This document shows positions 53,028 to 63,296 of a stretch of DNA of 64,000 nucleotides, piece after piece. Below the pieces are notes generated by a model, which was given only the letters and a program-made list of their open reading frames with translations, made no database searches and was not told the origin of the DNA. The stretch lies in assembly GCA_965205015.1 (NCBI GenBank), contig OZ242029.1, positions 2,144,001-2,208,000 of the forward strand, given 5' to 3'. The position numbers and the translations under genes are program-made. Origin of the DNA: Candidatus Poribacteria bacterium (GTDB lineage Bacteria; Poribacteria; WGA-4E; WGA-3G). The first letter of the stretch is position 1. The number at the start of each line of letters is the position of its first letter.

Positions 53028-54374
53028 CAGGGGTATTCAGTTTTCGGTTTTTTCGTAATATTTTTCACATCTGTTAATATTATAAAATAAACAGATACAG
53101 CGTGACTTTTCCCGCTGTATCTGCTATACTTCACCGTAAAAAACCATCACATTTTTTGAGGTGAATCATGACAAGAAGTTCCTCTTGCCACTTACTTGAC
53201 ATATTAGCAGAAGTTCCGGATCCACGCCATAAAAAAGGGAAACGCTACAACTTGGGGTCTATCCTTGCGCTGCTCGTCATCGGTGTAATGTCGAATCATA
53301 AAGGGTATACGTCTATAGCGACTTGGGCACGGCATCAAGGGGCCCTGGCAAAAGCGTTAGGTTTCAAATCAGAGAAGACCCCGTGTGCTGGAACGCTTCA
53401 TAATCTTTTGAAGCGTCTTGACGTCGTGAGTCTCGAAGCCTTACTCACGAAATGGGTGTTTTCAAAACTTGAAAGTCTTCAAGTTTTGAAAACACAGGAT
53501 TTACAAGGGGTGGCGATAGATGGCAAAGAGTTATGTGGCTCCAAAGACCCAGAAACCCGATACCGCACACATTTACTCTCCGCTGTCTCTCATGAGTTAG
53601 GGATTACCCTTACACAGCGGGCTGTCAGTGGAAAAACAAATGAGATCCCCATCTCAACGCAACTTCTGAAAACCTTTGATGTCACCGGGAAAGTCATAAC
53701 AACAGATGCACTTTTGACCCAAAGAACCTTTTGTAAAGAGGTTCTCAAATATCACGCAAACTATGCAATGCCCGTCAAAGAGAATCACAAACAGATGTAT
53801 CACGACATTCGCGAACTCTTTGAACCGCTTTCGGAGACAGACACACCACACGTCCAAGCACGACGGTTTCAGAACCTACACACCGAGGCAGACGCACACC
53901 TTGATACCCACACAGACGTTGAAACATCACACGGGTTTATCACCACACGCACGCTAACAGCAAGCACACTCTTGACGGATTATATCAACTGGCCAGGACT
54001 CGCACAAGTGTATCAATACCAATCCAAGCGGGAGAATACCAAAACAGGCGAGACTACCTACCAGACGCAGTATGGCATCACGAGTCTTACACCACAAGAC
54101 GCATCCGCAGAAACTTTGCTCAAACTCCGACGCCAACACTGGACGATAGAAAACAAAGTCCATTGGGTGCGAGATGTCGTCCTCGGGGAGGACGCTTCAC
54201 AAGCAAGAACAGGGAGACTCCCACAAGTCATGGCTGCCCTACGCAACACTGCCCTGGCTCTCTTACGCTTTGACGGACACACAAAAATTGCGGAAACACT
54301 GCGATTTTTCGCTGCAAAACCTAAACTCGCAGTTAAACTCATACAGTGACAAAACTTAAAACTAAATACCCCTG
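53028..54374 (+). mobile_element. Intact ISAs1-family element, 1347 bp
   Basis: IR caggggtatt(c/t)agtttt; 10-bp TSD ctaaacattt at 53018-53027 and 54375-54384. Confidence 0.92.
53168..54349 (+). CDS. ISAs1 family transposase
   Basis: VPDPR, AIDGK, KTNEIP, TTDALLTQ, HWTIENKVHWVRDV..ED. Confidence 0.95.
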   Translation: MTRSSSCHLLDILAEVPDPRHKKGKRYNLGSILALLVIGVMSNHKGYTSIATWARHQGALAKALGFKSEKTPCAGTLHNLLKRLDVVSLEALLTKWVFSKLESLQVLKTQDLQGVAIDGKELCGSKDPETRYRTHLLSAVSHELGITLTQRAVSGKTNEIPISTQLLKTFDVTGKVITTDALLTQRTFCKEVLKYHANYAMPVKENHKQMYHDIRELFEPLSETDTPHVQARRFQNLHTEADAHLDTHTDVETSHGFITTRTLTASTLLTDYINWPGLAQVYQYQSKRENTKTGETTYQTQYGITSLTPQDASAETLLKLRRQHWTIENKVHWVRDVVLGEDASQARTGRLPQVMAALRNTALALLRFDGHTKIAETLRFFAAKPKLAVKLIQ

Positions 54375-56995: not shown

Positions 56996-57247
56996 GTGAG
57001 ATCAATAGGAGCAAAAAAAATCCAAAAACTTGACCGTATAACATTTAATCCAAATGTAATGGGAGGCAAGCCTTGTATCCGCGGCATGCGGGTCACTGTC
57101 GGAATGATCGTTGGTTTGGTTGCCTCTGGTTGTTCCAACGCCGAGATTTTGGATGCCTACCCCTATTTAGAAAAGGAAGACATTCGTCAATCCCTTTCCT
57201 ATGCCGCGTGGCGAGTTCAAGAGATTGAAGTGCCAATCGGCCCATAA
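56996..57247 (+). CDS. DUF433 antitoxin (start uncertain)
   Basis: RITFNPNVMGGKPCIRGMRVTV, YPYLEKEDI. Confidence 0.88.
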   Translation: MRSIGAKKIQKLDRITFNPNVMGGKPCIRGMRVTVGMIVGLVASGCSNAEILDAYPYLEKEDIRQSLSYAAWRVQEIEVPIGP

Positions 57248-57624
57248 TGAAAGTGCTAATTGATATGAATCTTTCTATGAAATGGGTTCCCGTTTTTGAA
57301 CAATACGGATGGAGTGCGGTTCATTGGAGGAATATAGGTGAGCCGCACGCGTCAGATAGCACCATTATGACTTGGGCGCGTGAGAACGGTTATGTTGTGT
57401 TCACCCAAGATCTTGATTTTGGCACATTACTTGCAACTACCTATGTTCAAAAACCCAGTGTGATTCAAGTTCGGATACAGAACGCCCTACCGGAAAACTT
57501 AGGACCTTGGTTAGCAGGAATTCTTCAGCAACACGAAGCCTTCTTAGAAAACGGTGCTTTGCTTACCATCACCGAGGATCGAACTCAAGTGCGTGTTCTC
57601 CCATTCAAAGCGGACAATTCATAG
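57247..57624 (+). CDS. DUF5615 PIN-like toxin
   Basis: MKVLIDMNLS, SDSTIM, TQDLDFG; TAATG overlap with antitoxin. Confidence 0.88.
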   Translation: MKVLIDMNLSMKWVPVFEQYGWSAVHWRNIGEPHASDSTIMTWARENGYVVFTQDLDFGTLLATTYVQKPSVIQVRIQNALPENLGPWLAGILQQHEAFLENGALLTITEDRTQVRVLPFKADNS

Positions 57625-57629
57625 TCTCC

Positions 57630-59102
57630 TCACATCCGACTGTGTCCGTCACGTTGAAATCTCTCCAGCAACGCGGTTAACCCGTCCACGATCTCTGGGT
57701 ATTTGTTCCACAGATTGTTTGTCTCACTCGGATCCTCATAAATCTGATACAATTGCCCTGGCACATCCGATTTCGGACCCCCATCGCGCGGTGGAGGCCA
57801 CCCACCTGAACCCTGTGTCCCCAAGATCAACTTCCATGCATCGTGACGGATAGAAAAAACACCCGTGCTGGAGTGATGCACGATAGCCTCCCGCAACGGA
57901 CTCTCTATCACTTCACCTAACAGCGCAGGCAGGACATTACAACTATCCTGTCCGGCATCATCGGGGACCTCTGTTCCAACAATAGCCGCGCACGTCGCCA
58001 TCAGGTCCGTGAGACAGGTTAAGGCGTCGCTTTGCGTATTGGGTTCGATCACCCCAGGCCAGCGGGCAATCAGGGGTTCACGATGTCCACCTTCCCAGAT
58101 ATGTGCCTTATAGCCGCGCCAGTCGCCACACGACTTATGATCATAGAGGTGATACGGCATCGGACTGTTATCGCCTTGGATTCGGTCGCCAGGCAAGGCA
58201 CCGTTATCGCTCGTGACGAAGATAAGCGTCTCATCGGTTTTGCCAGTCCGCGCTAACGCATCCATCACCTCACCAACCATCCAGTCGACGAGCCATACCA
58301 GATCCCCCCGGGGACCTGCGCTGCTTTTACCACGTGCGAAATCAGGGACGACTGCCTCTGTACAAGGTTCATGCGGCGCGGAAGGCGTTAGATACAGGAA
58401 GAAAGGAGCATCTCCATCGGCTTGTCCCTCAATATATTCAACCGCCTTCTGCGCGATAATCGGATCGGCATCTTTGTGCTCCCACCCCGGGACCATCATT
58501 CCATGGCGGCTCGTAAACTCTGGCACGTCATGATAGACACTCGGAATCTCGACGAACCTATCATTCTCAATGAAACCGTAAGGGGGTTGACAGGTCGGAC
58601 AACCGGCGTTTCCATAGAAATAGTCAAAGCCGATATCTGTTGGACCCCCAGTCAATGGCGCGGTGAAGTCGATATGTTCTTCCAATTCACGTTCCGCGTT
58701 CTGCCACGGCAGCGGCGCATGGAAATCGAAATCGTAGCCTGGGACGGTCGAAAATTCAATACCTAAATGCCATTTACCGACGCATGCGGTGTTGTAACCC
58801 ACATCTTTCAGTAACCGAGGAACTGTTAGGCGTTCACGTTCGATGAGAGGTGGCTCATACCCGTAAAGCACACCATGTTTGAGGCGACTTCGCCAACAGT
58901 ACCGCCCCGTTAAGACCCCGTATCGTGTCGGCGTACAGACTGCAGAGGGAGAGTGCGCATCGGTGAAGCGGATTCCCTCCTGCGCAAGTTTATCCATATT
59001 CGGGGTGGGAATCTTTGAATCCGGGTTATAGCAGCCGACATCACCGTATCCCATATCGTCTGCCATGATAAAGACAATGTTTGGAGAACTGTGTATATCC
59101 AT
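57630..59102 (-). CDS. Arylsulfatase A-like (Cys-type)
   Basis: ADDMGYGD, CTPTRYGVLTG, GKWHLG, SDNG. Confidence 0.93.
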   Translation of the reverse strand: MDIHSSPNIVFIMADDMGYGDVGCYNPDSKIPTPNMDKLAQEGIRFTDAHSPSAVCTPTRYGVLTGRYCWRSRLKHGVLYGYEPPLIERERLTVPRLLKDVGYNTACVGKWHLGIEFSTVPGYDFDFHAPLPWQNAERELEEHIDFTAPLTGGPTDIGFDYFYGNAGCPTCQPPYGFIENDRFVEIPSVYHDVPEFTSRHGMMVPGWEHKDADPIIAQKAVEYIEGQADGDAPFFLYLTPSAPHEPCTEAVVPDFARGKSSAGPRGDLVWLVDWMVGEVMDALARTGKTDETLIFVTSDNGALPGDRIQGDNSPMPYHLYDHKSCGDWRGYKAHIWEGGHREPLIARWPGVIEPNTQSDALTCLTDLMATCAAIVGTEVPDDAGQDSCNVLPALLGEVIESPLREAIVHHSSTGVFSIRHDAWKLILGTQGSGGWPPPRDGGPKSDVPGQLYQIYEDPSETNNLWNKYPEIVDGLTALLERFQRDGHSRM

Positions 59103-59141
59103 TATAATTCCTGAAGAAAGTCTGGCGATTATAGATCGCGC

Positions 59142-60272
59142 CTATTGTAATTTCGCCTTTAATTCAGCGAGGTCTTTGTCAAGCGATGCCTCTTCAGCGT
59201 AGCTCGAAAATTCACGCTCTAATTTCGCATCCTGATATGCGACATCCACCTCAGCTGCCGTTTTCGCTAAAGTCGCTGCTTCGGTCGCATCCTGATCCAT
59301 CTTCGTAAGCGTTTCAAACGCCTTATTGTCCTGTATCTCTTTCAGCATTTCGCGAAGGTGTGCTTCTGCATTAACATTTCTGTGTTTCGCCACGACAGTT
59401 GTCTTTTTCCCCTCCGCTTCCATCGTTTTCTGCTGGAGATGCTCAAGGAGATCACTGAGGTCCCGAACGATCTGTTTCTGTTCTTCCCACCGTGTTTTAT
59501 ATTGATCCGCTAACCGTCGGTATTCGTTTCGTTTTTCCAAATCTTCGCGCGCCAAATCCTCGCGTCCGGCTTTAAGAGCAATGAGTGCCCGTTCCTGCCA
59601 CTGTTCTGCTTGGGCAACTGCACCTTCATAAGCCTCTTGAAACTGTTTTTCAACCCCAATAGAGGCAGCGACCTTCTCTTGTGCCTCCGAAAGCCGATTT
59701 TTCATCTCAACGATAACACGCTCTAATACGCGCTCTGGGTCTTCAGTTTCAATCTCAGTCTGTTCCGGTTCTGGTTCATATTTCACAACGACTGTCTCCG
59801 CGAACTTATCTCCGAGGCGTTGCTGTTTCTCCCCAAGGAACCAAAGTAGATCAAGGGGTTGAAGGATACCTGAGAATCGGCGAAGGAAAGCATCCTTGAA
59901 GGTACACGGCTTACCGTCTTTCAAACGAAGCACCTGTAGGGACAACAGTTTCTTCCCTATGCCTTGACCCTTCCTGAAACCATCTATGAAAAACAGACCG
60001 AATATCCACAAGGCAGCACTAAACAAAAAAGCAAAGACGCTGAGTCCCATGCCAGTTAATAGCGATCTGGATACATTGGAAGGGGCTGTAGGGAAATCGT
60101 CGGGGCCTGCAGGGAATATCGGGAAAAGCACGAATGTTGTTAGAAACGTTAGAAGAAGTACGAAACCTGATTGCACAGCACCTAAAAGCGCGATATCTAT
60201 AAAGAGTGCGTATAACCGTGTCATTCGGGATGCTAATTTAAATTTTTTTCCTGCAATTTTAATAGATTTCAT
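59142..60272 (-). CDS. RDD domain - PspA/IM30 fusion protein (copy 1)
   Basis: RDD: RLYALFID, GQGIGKKLLSLQV, QRLGDKFAETVVV; PspA: EDPERVLE..EM, WQERA..AL..GREDLAR, LAELKAKL. Confidence 0.85.
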   Translation of the reverse strand: MKSIKIAGKKFKLASRMTRLYALFIDIALLGAVQSGFVLLLTFLTTFVLFPIFPAGPDDFPTAPSNVSRSLLTGMGLSVFAFLFSAALWIFGLFFIDGFRKGQGIGKKLLSLQVLRLKDGKPCTFKDAFLRRFSGILQPLDLLWFLGEKQQRLGDKFAETVVVKYEPEPEQTEIETEDPERVLERVIVEMKNRLSEAQEKVAASIGVEKQFQEAYEGAVAQAEQWQERALIALKAGREDLAREDLEKRNEYRRLADQYKTRWEEQKQIVRDLSDLLEHLQQKTMEAEGKKTTVVAKHRNVNAEAHLREMLKEIQDNKAFETLTKMDQDATEAATLAKTAAEVDVAYQDAKLEREFSSYAEEASLDKDLAELKAKLQ

Positions 60273-60325
60273 TTTCAAATCCTGAAAATTTTTTTGTGTT
60301 TACGTTACACACGTTCCGATAAATT

Positions 60326-61498
60326 TTACTTCTGCAATTTCGCCTTTAATTCAGCGAGGTCCTTGTCAAGCGATGCCTCTTCAGCATAGTTCGAAAATTC
60401 ACGCTCTAATTTCATATCCTGATATGCCACATCTACTTCAGCTGCTGCTTTCGCCAAGGTGGCCGCCTCGGTCGCATCCTGCTCCGTTTTTGCAAGCGCG
60501 TCGAGTGCTTTGCTGTCCTGTATCTCTTTTAACATCTCGCGCAGATGCGCTTCAGCGTCGATGTTTCTGTGTTGTGCCATGACAACAGTTTTTTTCCCCT
60601 CCGCTTCCATCGCTTTCTGCTGAAGATGCTCGAGGAGATCATTGAAATTTCGGACCATCTCTTTCTGTTCTTCCCACTGGTTTTTGTATTGATCCGCTAA
60701 CCGTCGATATTCGTTCCGTTTTTCCAAATCTTCACGAGCCAGATCTTCGCGTCCGGCTTCGAGAGATATAATCGCGCGTTCTTGCCACTGTTCAGCTTGG
60801 GAAACAGCACTTTCATAAGCATCCTGAAACTGTTTTTCAACACCGATAGAAGCGTTAACCTTCTCACGTGCTTCCGCAAGCCTGTCTTTCAGCTCAACGA
60901 TAATACCCTCTAAAACCCGCTCTGGGTCTTCAGTTTCAATCTCAGTCTGCTCCGATTCGGGTTCAAACTTCACAACAACCGTCTCTGCGAATTTATCTCC
61001 CATCCGCTGCCGTTTTTTTCCAAGTGTCCAGAGAGAATCCAGAGGTTGAAAGACGCTTGTGAGTCGGCGAATAAAAGAATCTTTGAAACTACACGGTTTA
61101 CCATCTTTCAATTTTAGCACCTGTAAGGACAGCAGTTTTTTGCCAAATCCCTGTCCATTTTTGAAGCCATCTATGAGAAACATGCTGGCTATCCACAAGA
61201 CGGTACCACTCTTCGCTAAAGTCTCGGGATTATTATGTCCCCACGGTCCGAACAGGAAAACTAAAAGCAATTGCGCGACAACCAATACATTTCTTGGGAG
61301 TTTCGTTTTAGGTCCTAATATCCACAGTAATGCACTGAGCAATCCAATCTGGACAAAACTGGGACTTACAGCTGCGAGAAGAAGGAATAAAGCGAGTAGG
61401 ATACTCGCTAAGAACATTCCATCAATGAAAAACGCGAACAATCGCGCAAATCGGGATGCCAATTTGAATTTTTTCCCTGCAATCTCAATAAACTTCAT
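60326..61498 (-). CDS. RDD domain - PspA/IM30 fusion protein (copy 2)
   Basis: Same architecture as copy 1, with a different TM/loop segment. Confidence 0.85.
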   Translation of the reverse strand: MKFIEIAGKKFKLASRFARLFAFFIDGMFLASILLALFLLLAAVSPSFVQIGLLSALLWILGPKTKLPRNVLVVAQLLLVFLFGPWGHNNPETLAKSGTVLWIASMFLIDGFKNGQGFGKKLLSLQVLKLKDGKPCSFKDSFIRRLTSVFQPLDSLWTLGKKRQRMGDKFAETVVVKFEPESEQTEIETEDPERVLEGIIVELKDRLAEAREKVNASIGVEKQFQDAYESAVSQAEQWQERAIISLEAGREDLAREDLEKRNEYRRLADQYKNQWEEQKEMVRNFNDLLEHLQQKAMEAEGKKTVVMAQHRNIDAEAHLREMLKEIQDSKALDALAKTEQDATEAATLAKAAAEVDVAYQDMKLEREFSNYAEEASLDKDLAELKAKLQK

Positions 61499-61571
61499 CC
61501 TAAAACAGTCTCCTCGCTATACATATAGAGTCCGCAAGCGCAAAAAAGGATAGTCAAGTTATATTTTCTGT

Positions 61572-62177
61572 TTACGCTTTTTGTTCTACCATACTTGAGA
61601 GGATGCCGAGAATCTGGTCGCACTGTGCAATTGTGTAGACAGCCATATCAATATGCAGTTTTTGCCCCTCTAATTTGAGGAAAATCCAATCCGTGCCGGA
61701 GGTAGTCGTTCCATAGACGTATGGAATGCTATTTTTTCTTTCAGCGTTAAAGCGTTGCGCAGCGATCATCTCAGCAACGCATTGGCCCAATCCGAGTTTC
61801 ACGTCGGCATTTTTTGCTTCTACGAGCGCAATGACTGGTGCCTCTACGAAAAATTGCTCTGGCGACAAACTTATCAAAAAATCACACACCCCGGTTAAGT
61901 CATTTTCTGCATCAACGTTGAAATCAACACCCGAAAAGAGACTGATACGACGATCGAAGTGCTCGCGGAGTTCAAATAAGACATCGGTAATAATCAGCTC
62001 CGAGCGGGCCTTTTCTGTACCTATGGCAACGGCTAACGGCACCTTTTTTTTTAATTGCGTTGTAAGGTGTGAACTCGGCGTTATCGGCTCTATTTCAGAA
62101 AAGAGGTCTATAGACGCAACCCTTTCCAATTCAAACGCCATTCCAACGGATTCTAAAGTGAAATCGCTGTAAGCCAT
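61572..62177 (-). CDS. Conserved hypothetical protein, probable PD-(D/E)xK nuclease-like fold
   Basis: TEKARSE, GVCDF, VEAK, GQCVAEM, YGTTTSG..W.F. Confidence 0.7.
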   Translation of the reverse strand: MAYSDFTLESVGMAFELERVASIDLFSEIEPITPSSHLTTQLKKKVPLAVAIGTEKARSELIITDVLFELREHFDRRISLFSGVDFNVDAENDLTGVCDFLISLSPEQFFVEAPVIALVEAKNADVKLGLGQCVAEMIAAQRFNAERKNSIPYVYGTTTSGTDWIFLKLEGQKLHIDMAVYTIAQCDQILGILSSMVEQKA

Positions 62178-62231: not shown

Positions 62232-63296
62232 TCATAGAGTTGGCACTGTCACTGCCACCTCACGTCCACCAGCGTTCGAGGAATCAATAACGCCTTGAAT
62301 AATGACATTCGTGAGCATCACACCGTAAGGATCAATCGGCGACGGTTTCCCTTCACGAACAGCATCGATGAATGCCGTGTCTTCCTCATGGAACACGCTC
62401 ACCGATTCAAACGCCGTGAATTCTTGGTCAAAAATCTCACCATCTTTGTCGCCATAGACACGCACGCCGTCCTGCGGTCCGCGGACCTCGCCGATACCGA
62501 GGCGGAGTCCCGCCTTCTTGCCGAGGAAAATCGTCCCACCGAGTGAATCCATGTTCATACACCAGCACGTTTTGAAAACCATACGCGCCCCGTTCTCGAA
62601 AACCACCCAGCCGACACCGAAGTCTTCAACTTCGGTCTCTTTAAGTGCCGGGTTCCACGTGTTATGTAGACTCAGGTAGTTGGAGGTAATACCAGAAACC
62701 GCGACAGGCTTCGGATGCCCCATCAAATAGAGAGCCGTATCCAGTGCGTAAACACCGATGTCTGCAGACGCCCCTAAACCGGCGGTCGCCTTGCGGATAA
62801 AACTGCCGCCCGGATTCCCGCGCCGTCTATCTGCAACCGTTTCGACATAGTAAATATCGCCAAGGGTGCCAGCGTCAACAATCTCTTTCGCTTTAATGAC
62901 CTCTGGTGAATATCGGAGTTTCAAACCGATCATGAGGATTTTATCGTTTTCTTTTGCAGCACGCCACATTGAGGCGGCAGCGTCCAACGTCGCTTCCATC
63001 GGCTTCTCGCAGAAGACGTGTTTGCCAGCGTTCAGCGCGGCGACGGTCGGTGCCGCATGCACACCTGTCGGCGTACAGACGTACACCGCCTCAATCTCGT
63101 CCATTTTAAGCATTTCGTTGTAATCCGTGAACGTCCGCTTGATGCCCCACTGTTCTTGCGCACGTTCCAGGTTTGCAGGGACAAGGTCGGCGGCAGCGAT
63201 AATCTCAGCACCTTCAATCTCAGCAAGCGTTCGACAATGTGCTCCCGAGATACCGCCCGCCCCAATCAAGCCCAATTTAATTGTTCGCATTTCCAT
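62232..63296 (-). CDS. Gfo/Idh/MocA family oxidoreductase
   Basis: GLIGAGGI, GKHVFCEKP, GTLGDIYY. Confidence 0.92.
   Translation of the reverse strand: MEMRTIKLGLIGAGGISGAHCRTLAEIEGAEIIAAADLVPANLERAQEQWGIKRTFTDYNEMLKMDEIEAVYVCTPTGVHAAPTVAALNAGKHVFCEKPMEATLDAAASMWRAAKENDKILMIGLKLRYSPEVIKAKEIVDAGTLGDIYYVETVADRRRGNPGGSFIRKATAGLGASADIGVYALDTALYLMGHPKPVAVSGITSNYLSLHNTWNPALKETEVEDFGVGWVVFENGARMVFKTCWCMNMDSLGGTIFLGKKAGLRLGIGEVRGPQDGVRVYGDKDGEIFDQEFTAFESVSVFHEEDTAFIDAVREGKPSPIDPYGVMLTNVIIQGVIDSSNAGGREVAVTVPTL

Follow-up and report, generated by a model that had tools for sequence, protein, structure and literature searches.

Introduction

The engagement of membranes by PspA, Vipp1 and ESCRT-III polymers is under active study, with helix alpha0, the N-terminal amphipathic helix that binds membranes, at the center of the question. 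PspA and LiaH are normally recruited by separate membrane proteins, PspB/PspC and LiaI, respectively. Here we describe two adjacent genes, named A and B, in a window of 64,000 nucleotides of a Candidatus Poribacteria genome (assembly GCA_965205015.1, contig OZ242029.1, positions 2,144,001 to 2,208,000), each of which joins an RDD membrane domain to a PspA/IM30 body in a single chain. More than 98% of PspA homologs are single-domain proteins according to the accessible text of Ravi et al. (2024, PMC11237479), where the fusions reported for bacterial ESCRT-III-type proteins include a Snf7-RND transporter in Actinobacteria, PspA-NlpC/P60 and PspA-PspAA; bacterial members of the ESCRT-III superfamily that are linked to transmembrane (TM) segments have precedents in that study. 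For the RDD family, the available part of the work of Burroughs, Aravind and colleagues (PMC12419801) describes a conserved intramembrane binding site that faces the cytoplasm and gives the role of RDD as unknown, while for one RDD protein a study reported Na+(Li+,K+)/H+ antiporter activity for which C-terminal arginine and aspartate (R/D) residues are essential (PMC5996927, accessible text).

Results

Two adjacent genes each encode a complete RDD domain and a PspA/IM30 body

Both open reading frames (ORFs) run uninterrupted from start to stop on the minus strand (Table 1). Their products match the RDD profile PF06271 with 53.1 bits (gene B) and 39.2 bits (gene A; cut-off 24.1, positions 2-136 of the 137 in the profile matched), and the PspA_IM30 profile PF04012 with 77.2 and 73.8 bits, respectively, against a cut-off of 33.9, covering profile positions 20-217 of 220. 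In both genes 11 acidic linker residues separate the last RDD strand (VVVKY/F) from EDPERV, and the alignment places the end of both PspA bodies at LAELKAKLQ. The initial annotation had described two adjacent paralogs, each with a complete RDD domain, an acidic linker and a PspA body running from EDP to LAELKAKL, and every detail of this description that could be checked was correct, including the match of the C-terminal half to PspA_IM30. The two proteins share 67% identity; they agree best in the region that begins where the membrane part ends, and least in the transmembrane stretch. The ORF listing placed gene B at 59142-60278, starting from a TTG six bases upstream of the ATG at 60272; since database proteins match the 376-aa form and an AGGA lies 7 nt upstream, the ATG is the more likely start.

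The PspA part spans alpha1 to alpha5 and lacks alpha0

The first 19 positions of the PF04012 profile were unmatched in both genes. When gene B was compared by phmmer with the chains of the PDB, its residues 175-375 aligned to residues 21-217 of Vipp1/PspA from Nostoc and Synechocystis (6zvr, 7o3w, 8qbw; E about 1e-16) at 28-32% identity. Since the matched regions are profile positions 20-217 and Vipp1 residues 21-217, the body corresponds to alpha1 to alpha5 without alpha0 and without the Vipp1 tail. The 11 residues that precede it are acidic and predicted to be disordered, and the fusion proteins stop at the equivalent of Vipp1 residue 217-218, leaving no C-terminal alpha6. An AlphaFold2 (AF2) model of gene B, based on an alignment of 73 members (A2), contained helices at 179-234, 238-315 and 317-375, with a predicted local distance difference test (pLDDT) score above 90 in the alpha1-alpha2/3 hairpin; the linker was disordered (pLDDT below 50) and the membrane part helical. 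The modeled PspA part thus shows the ESCRT-III-like fold of an alpha1-alpha2/3 hairpin followed by alpha4 and alpha5, and in a Foldseek search of the PDB the first 17 places were taken by Vipp1 or PspA chains (E 1.3e-6 to 1.8e-3); Snf7 and archaeal ESCRT-III ranked far lower. The loss of alpha0 and its replacement by an integral-membrane RDD domain, as proposed in the initial annotation, are borne out by the Pfam and Vipp1 alignments, AF2 and Foldseek.

Two published observations bear on the ability of such a body to assemble. PspA lacking amino acids 1-23 (an engineered alpha1-5 form) is reported to form normal rods of unchanged structure that take up no membrane (bioRxiv 10.1101/2025.06.13.659447, accessible text), and in Vipp1 the alpha5 residues F197 and L200 make up Interface 3, mutation of which severely inhibits self-assembly according to the accessible text of Liu et al. 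(2021, PMC8281802). In the PDB alignment these two residues correspond to F355 and Y358 of the fusion, both of which are at least 90% conserved among the 73 family members. Since PspA without alpha0 forms rods and the Interface 3 residues are kept, the alpha1-alpha5 body looks assembly-competent, with its membrane link at the normal attachment point. A three-copy prediction with gene B residues 175-376 and alignment A2 returned "no answer" (score 0.00) and weighs neither way.

The RDD part has a predicted cytoplasmic face and a conserved charged site

The RDD domain of gene B, modeled alone (pLDDT 85.4, predicted template modeling score 0.71), consists of an N-terminal beta-hairpin, TM1 (16-49), TM2 (67-98), a second beta-hairpin, re-entrant helices (125-141) and a last strand (160-164). 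Of its lysine and arginine residues (K/R), seven lie within the N-terminal 19 residues and 10 within residues 96-135, and the loop between TM1 and TM2 has none. The third hydrophobic stretch (ILQPLDLLWFL) is short and polar, is folded by AF2 into two short helices and fell below the TM threshold of 1.6 throughout; it was locatable in 72 of the 73 A2 members, with a median score of 0.89 and a maximum of 1.45. Further information came from natural chains of the order RDD-RDD-PspA (P0123, P0125) or RDD x4-PspA (L044), where the C-terminal end of one RDD unit is joined to the N-terminal end of the next by about 15 residues, an arrangement that is plausible only with the two ends of a unit on one side of the membrane. 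Together, the K/R distribution, the third stretch below the TM threshold, the tandem RDD chains and the AF2 model indicate that the PspA part, the linker before it, the beta-strands and the N terminus of the chain are likely all cytoplasmic. In the tandem chains (L044 is the 886-aa frame G004:C1) a single PspA part is preceded by four or by two complete RDD units, and the occurrence of such units within one chain points to RDD domains acting next to each other as oligomers. Gene A differs from gene B, which has two TM helices, by an extra hydrophobic hairpin: its hydrophobic blocks at residues 17-62 and 67-85, together with a reading by eye of the translation before the IDGF motif, suggest four TM helices and a short re-entrant stretch.

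Among 38 sequences, free-standing homologs included, R19, D26, D97 and D155 were at least 90% conserved and R131, D141 and R152 were invariant, so that the conserved arginine and aspartates that characterize the RDD family are present. Because of these charged residues and the cytoplasm-facing intramembrane site reported for the family, the RDD anchor probably also senses or conducts something. The initial annotation had left the choice between anchor and sensor; a mere anchor fits poorly with the retained charged residues and with the existence of free-standing homologs of 160 aa. A Foldseek search of the PDB with the RDD model gave no match at E <= 0.001. The best hit, 7t92_A (E 0.17), was considered as a fold relative and rejected, as its VIA-align wide values (Z 8.2, rmsd 4.1 over 121 residues) lie within the background that the tool states for models lacking a clear match, and no fold was assigned.

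The fusion recurs in independent assemblies and protein collections

Contigs of three public runs from two studies span positions 59000-61700 without insertion or deletion; those of the second study carry 15 substitutions inside the genes, of which 11 are synonymous and 4 conservative. The contigs end at the linker, where the two paralogs share some 30 nt of identical sequence; this reflects the assembly graph and is no gap. In a protein collection clustered at 90% identity, 634 matches were obtained at E <= 0.001, and the best 120 of these all carried both Pfam domains on one chain; wherever the source names an organism among the best 120, it is Candidatus Poribacteria, and the names given to the fusion proteins in the databases are only "PspA/IM30 family protein" or "hypothetical protein". 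Since more than 100 orthologous clusters have both domains on one chain, the junction is no assembly or frameshift artifact.

Runs X1 and X2 contained a contig of low depth (10.9 and 55, compared to about 240 and 930) that matched only the conserved gene ends and skipped 1136 and 1063 nt (joints 59195-60332 and 60388-61452); it probably represents a related strain or species of the same samples with a different array content. Candidates for a natural split into separate RDD and PspA genes at two related loci (L075 in G005 and L085 in G003) were rejected, since both turned out to be frameshifted copies of the fusion. Their frameshifts lie inside the RDD part, and they may be pseudogenes or long-read assembly errors.

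The fusion family is found in Poribacteria, where it appears to replace canonical PspA

An exhaustive HMMER search over 1.84 billion representatives yielded 1852 matches at E <= 0.001. Only 29 of them reached E <= 1e-30, and these were the fusion family and its fragments (at least 44% identity), below which the score dropped sharply to ordinary PspA (about 30% identity, E about 1e-22). Both domains were detected by Pfam (E <= 0.001) in 11 of 15 family representatives and PspA alone in the other 4. No fusion outside Poribacteria occurred among the best 150 of the 1852 representatives, other phyla not having been scanned genome by genome. A scan of one genome per species, using a pattern specific to this RDD subfamily and blind to unrelated RDD-PspA fusions, identified 74 loci, 71 in Poribacteria and 3 in metagenome-assembled genomes labeled "uncultured bacterium". 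Finally, a junction query of 105 residues, reaching from the conserved end of RDD across the linker into alpha1, was run against 175 Poribacteria species genomes and gave full-length matches (E <= 6e-19) in 103. Weak matches were obtained in 27 genomes, confined to the RDD part in all five that were examined, and 45 genomes gave no match.

Strong canonical PspA (Pfam E 1e-48 to 1e-60, profile matched from position 1 or 2) was present in 44 of 150 sampled genomes of the phylum, and the fusion was absent from all 44, none of which is among the 103. The closest non-fused relative that we found is the canonical PspA of a sister clade, a protein of 222 aa with a typical alpha0 followed by EDPEK, which, aligned from its residue 23, is 40% identical over 199 residues to the PspA half of gene B; the corresponding values were 35% over 204 aa for the best representative and 37% over 113 aa for an alpha0-bearing PspA of a fusion genome. 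One cluster among the closest non-fusion PspA/RDD representatives belongs to Chloroflexia. Sister genomes also encode free-standing RDD proteins of 160-198 aa that have the N-terminal beta-hairpin motif, all of the conserved charged residues and an acidic C-terminal tail. The simplest history suggested by these comparisons would be that the phylum's own PspA lost alpha0 by fusion behind an RDD protein of the free-standing type, that the fusion then multiplied and that the soluble form was lost, and the fusion appears to have taken the place of mainstream PspA in a sponge-associated clade of Poribacteria. In two sister genomes the free-standing RDD gene lies beside an ADH-like gene, and a similar gene is found one or two genes upstream of the arrays; this faintly suggests the RDD locus as the recipient in the fusion event.

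Other PspA-like loci, for which genome-wide searches of related Poribacteria genomes were used, were read in five fusion-bearing genomes and Pfam-scanned in two. Besides the arrays, these genomes encode an alpha0-bearing PspA of 220-234 aa, directly followed by an ABC ATPase gene, as well as a divergent PspA-like protein that is about 280 aa long and has an N-terminal helix; the gene of the latter lies beside an AAA+ ATPase gene in 2 of the 5 loci read. The stop of the alpha0-bearing PspA gene overlaps the start of the ABC ATPase gene (L087, L096 and related loci). Unusual PspA architectures were also seen among the representatives (P0215, P0221, P0171, P0265): PspA followed by a TIC20-like membrane domain at the C terminus, PspA embedded in an alpha-2-macroglobulin-like protein of 1510 aa, and chains of the CesT_Tir-PspA and adenylate-kinase-PspA types.

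Ordered paralog arrays are under purifying selection

At the 74 loci the RDD-PspA unit is arranged head to tail on one strand in one to five copies. According to ORF clustering, 20 loci have one copy, 34 two, 17 three, 2 four and 1 five, counts that are lower bounds, as some loci are cut by contig ends. The tandem pair of the initial annotation is thus a pair at this locus, and more broadly one instance of a Poribacteria family of arrays with one to five copies and a fixed order of paralogs. A FastTree phylogeny of 148 full-length members, divided by distance clustering, gave four main groups that follow array position: group 1 mostly occupies the first position (gene A), group 2 mostly the second (gene B), group 3 the last, and group 4 the first position within a second subclade. 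Since the tree groups follow array position, the phylogeny indicates that the duplications are old and that the order of the paralogs has been kept. At 19 of the 74 loci an ORF of 101-111 aa without Pfam match lies inside the array (e.g., L017:5113-5448), mostly before the last-position paralog.

Ratios of non-synonymous to synonymous substitution rates (dN/dS) were obtained for the two paralogs and for four pairs of orthologs, one further pair of orthologs being saturated. They lay at 0.065-0.13 in the PspA part and at 0.12-0.25 in the RDD part, and identity between loci was 80-96% for the PspA part and 42-85% for the RDD part. Both halves are under purifying selection. Between genes A and B, dS was 0.83 in the PspA half and 1.52 in the RDD half; this lower value in the PspA half, together with the stretch of about 30 nt of identical linker DNA, hints at gene conversion between the two paralogs.

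Gene neighborhood

The array is followed by a sulfatase gene at 69 of the 74 loci, directly adjoining at 65 of them (median gap 37 nt), and the sulfatase is possibly co-transcribed with the array. A GFO/IDH/MocA oxidoreductase gene is present at 71 of the 74 loci and adjoins the array at 61 (median gap 143 nt). In the window, a 201-aa ORF lies 5' of gene A, followed by the oxidoreductase gene and a divergent ADH-like gene. This ORF has no Pfam or NCBIfam match, has homologs at the same place in 7 of the 74 related loci and looks like an insertion into a conserved block. On the 3' side of gene B are the sulfatase gene, a DUF433/DUF5615 pair on the opposite strand, a PhyH-like gene, a second sulfatase gene and a DDE transposase gene at the edge of the conserved block; the DUF433 and DUF5615/PIN-like pair is toxin-antitoxin-like, and DUF5615 occupies the corresponding place at 18 of the 74 loci.

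The initial annotation had noted that pspF, pspB, pspC and liaRS were missing nearby, and Pfam indeed detected no PspF, PspB, PspC or Lia genes among the array neighbors in the window. PspC was found in none of 5 related fusion-bearing genomes and in 2 of 5 sister genomes, both small samples, while PspB, PspF and Lia were not searched genome-wide.

Table 1. Features of the RDD-PspA array and its surroundings, in positions of the 64,000-nucleotide window.
Feature	Position	Strand	Basis and remarks
Gene A, RDD-PspA fusion, 390 aa	60326..61498	minus	ORF, Pfam; upstream paralog, "A" orthogroup, first array position
Gene A, Pfam spans			RDD residues 14-171, PspA_IM30 residues 188-387
Gene A, RDD membrane domain, residues 1-178	60965..61498	minus	Pfam, hydropathy, conservation
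Gene A, acidic linker EPESEQTEIET, residues 179-189	60932..60964	minus	Paralog alignment
Gene A, PspA/IM30 body alpha1-alpha5, residues 190-390	60329..60931	minus	Pfam, alignment; EDP start
Gene B, RDD-PspA fusion, 376 aa from ATG	59142..60272	minus	ORF, Pfam; paralog downstream of gene A, in the second position of the array ("B" orthogroup)
Gene B, RDD membrane domain, residues 1-165	59778..60272	minus	AF2 of domain alone, hydropathy, charge
Gene B, acidic linker EPEPEQTEIET, residues 166-176	59745..59777	minus	Alignment; pLDDT <50 (predicted disordered)
Gene B, PspA/IM30 body alpha1-alpha5, residues 177-376	59145..59744	minus	Pfam, PDB alignment, AF2, Foldseek
Sulfatase	57630..59102	minus	39 nt 3' of gene B; Pfam domain from residue 7, no room for a signal peptide
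GFO/IDH/MocA oxidoreductase	62232..63296	minus	Pfam; upstream of array
201-aa ORF	61572-62177	minus	
DUF433 + DUF5615/PIN-like pair	56996-57624	plus	Between sulfatase and PhyH-like genes
DDE transposase	53168-54349	plus	DDE_Tnp_1 with DDE_Tnp_1_assoc

Discussion

From the computed anatomy, conservation, distribution, selection and likely topology we infer, with moderate confidence, that the fusions constitute a permanently membrane-tethered PspA scaffold of the ESCRT-III type whose RDD anchor is probably also a sensor or effector; polymerisation, heteromers and a stabilizing or remodeling function are the inferred parts of this proposal. The RDD domain, with two or four TM helices, a re-entrant hairpin, a small cytoplasmic beta-sheet and both ends in the cytoplasm, would replace alpha0, and the flexible acidic linker of 11 residues would hang the alpha1-alpha5 body on the cytoplasmic face at the usual alpha0-alpha1 joint. 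The body would then polymerise along the inner membrane as a stabilizing or remodeling scaffold, in polymers that are probably mixed from the paralogs of one array, as the stable paralog groups in fixed order suggest. With the scaffold always at the membrane, recruiters of the PspB/C or LiaI type and alpha0 itself would be unnecessary, and the RDD domain, as the likely sensor or effector for a lipid, an ion or a small ligand, would couple the state of the membrane to the polymer. The one-component system for membrane remodeling or envelope stress that the initial annotation envisaged is likewise a putative role. Eukaryotic ESCRT-III subunits co-polymerise. A bolder version, which we put forward tentatively and regard as rather unlikely in its entirety, is that in sponge-associated Poribacteria the A, B, D and E paralogs co-polymerise into a bilayer-rooted lattice in which RDD senses or conducts a lipid or ion signal, replacing soluble PspA.

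Several points weigh against the tethered scaffold. The PspA and LiaH equivalog cut-offs of NCBIfam were missed by a wide distance (TIGR02977, 68.5 compared to 242.95 bits; NF045984, 47.7 compared to 380 bits), the topology is a predicted one, and the tight and conserved linkage to a sulfatase gene is not explained by a pure membrane-maintenance role. Moreover, the two other alpha0-bearing PspA-like genes of the fusion-bearing genomes could carry the classical function. PspA/Vipp1 rods have a narrow lumen, into which a membrane domain of 165 aa per protomer may not fit. Because every protomer carries such a domain, flat assemblies, or assemblies wider than the known rods, seem more likely for the fusions.

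The conserved RDD site can also be read the other way around, with RDD as the working part (an ion or solute transporter, a lipid-binding enzyme or a sensor) and the PspA coiled coil as a regulatory or oligomerising scaffold that, for example, gates a cation or proton path. This would account for charged residues kept in all fusions and in the free-standing homologs, and it draws on the site described for the family as intramembrane and cytoplasm-facing, on the antiport reported for one RDD protein and on the RDD-RDD and RDD x4 chains with their suggestion of oligomeric RDD action. However, the PspA part is the more conserved half by both dN/dS and identity between loci, it keeps the residues of the polymer interface, the fusion replaces canonical PspA phyletically, and the antiporter claim comes from one study of a distant RDD protein; we therefore hold a working role of RDD alone to be possible and distinctly the weaker proposal. 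The neighborhood raises the alternative that the array is an accessory of the sulfatase/oxidoreductase/PhyH block for sulfated compounds, in which it would gate or export substrate or sulfate at the membrane and be held in place or protected by the PspA part. The sulfatase gene directly 3' and the oxidoreductase gene adjoining the array, all on the same strand, agree with this, as does a sulfatase domain that begins at residue 7, so that the enzyme is probably cytoplasmic and would need imported substrate. Against it, the whole region is syntenic, opposite-strand genes included, so that the linkage may simply be inherited, and no match to the sulfatase cluster was found at two standalone-RDD and two canonical-PspA loci of sister genomes (16 kb each). 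Poribacteria also carry many sulfatases, and on balance we think a role as sulfatase accessory unlikely.

E. coli PspA binds PspF, and by analogy the PspA part could be a non-polymerising, tethered binding module that holds a cytoplasmic partner, such as an AAA+ or ABC ATPase, at the membrane. Pairs of PspA-like and AAA+ genes and of PspA and ABC ATPase genes do occur elsewhere in Poribacteria genomes, but no such partner is encoded at the array in any of the 74 loci, and the alpha5 interface residues and the full alpha1-alpha5 body are conserved; we consider this explanation very improbable. That the fusion is an artifact of mis-assembly, of read-through between two genes or of decaying pseudogenes could draw on the two related genomes with frameshifted fusion copies, and it is already refuted by the best 120 database clusters with both domains on one chain, the junction-spanning open frames in 103 genomes, the independent contigs without insertions or deletions and the purifying selection. 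The tethered scaffold thus remains the explanation that we favor.

The fusion represents a natural swap of alpha0 for a transmembrane domain that has been selected in more than 100 species, in ordered paralog arrays, with ordinary PspA apparently dispensed with. It offers a system for asking whether a PspA polymer works when every subunit is rooted in the bilayer, which geometry it adopts and whether bacterial ESCRT-III-type proteins can function as heteropolymers. The uncharacterized RDD family is thereby connected with a defined process of the cell, and the fusion is indicative of an envelope adaptation specific to this lineage of abundant and uncultured symbionts of sponges. Should the co-polymerising lattice prove true, no natural polymer of the ESCRT-III type with transmembrane protomers would have preceded it, and RDD would gain its first physiological role, with sensing, anchoring and remodeling combined in one chain.

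Comparison with known systems

We found no description of an RDD domain joined to PspA, Vipp1 or ESCRT-III in the literature searched, and the initial annotation knew of none for this fusion. The term "RDD" is absent from the main text of Ravi et al. (2024), the supplements and web application of which may list the architecture, and RDD is likewise not mentioned in the accessible parts of a phyletic survey of 2022 (PMC9239133) and a review of 2025 (PMC7619361). Publications that pair "Poribacteria" with "phage shock" look unrelated judging from their titles and the openings of their abstracts. A link to the "compartmentation" of Poribacteria was considered and rejected, since the accessible text of Jahn et al. 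(2016, PMC5087111) deals with storage granules and protein microcompartments and not with internal membranes. Within the literature searched, bacterial ESCRT-III-type domains fused to domains acting on membranes or lipids are thus known, while the pairing of RDD with PspA is apparently undescribed.

Compared to the RDD family (PF06271), including the Halobacillus RDD protein and VanZ-RDD fusions, the domain described here passes the Pfam threshold and keeps the R/D residues, but it is followed by a C-terminal PspA part, has a shortened and polar third hydrophobic stretch and has no clear relative among solved structures. With the fusions of Ravi et al. (2024), as far as they are given in the accessible text, it has in common that an ESCRT-III-type domain is joined to a domain acting on membranes or lipids, whereas the partner and the lineage differ. 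The fusions share with PspA, IM30 (Vipp1) and LiaH (PF04012) the helices alpha1-alpha5, the EDPE start, the fold and the alpha5 interface residues. In contrast to these proteins they are without alpha0 and without the alpha6 of Vipp1, are covalently linked to an integral-membrane domain, occur in multi-copy arrays, fall below the equivalog cut-offs of PspA and LiaH and lack a PspF/B/C context. The closest counterpart in boundary is the engineered Synechocystis PspA alpha1-5 (Hudina et al., 2025, 10.1101/2025.06.13.659447, accessible text), from which amino acids 1-23 were deleted, as the fusion body begins at the equivalent of residue 21-23; that laboratory truncation is soluble and engulfs no membrane, whereas the fusion has a transmembrane domain in place of alpha0. 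Recruitment by PspB/PspC or LiaI and the fusion lead to the same outcome, namely a PspA-type protein at the cytoplasmic face of the inner membrane, but in the fusion the link is covalent and permanent.

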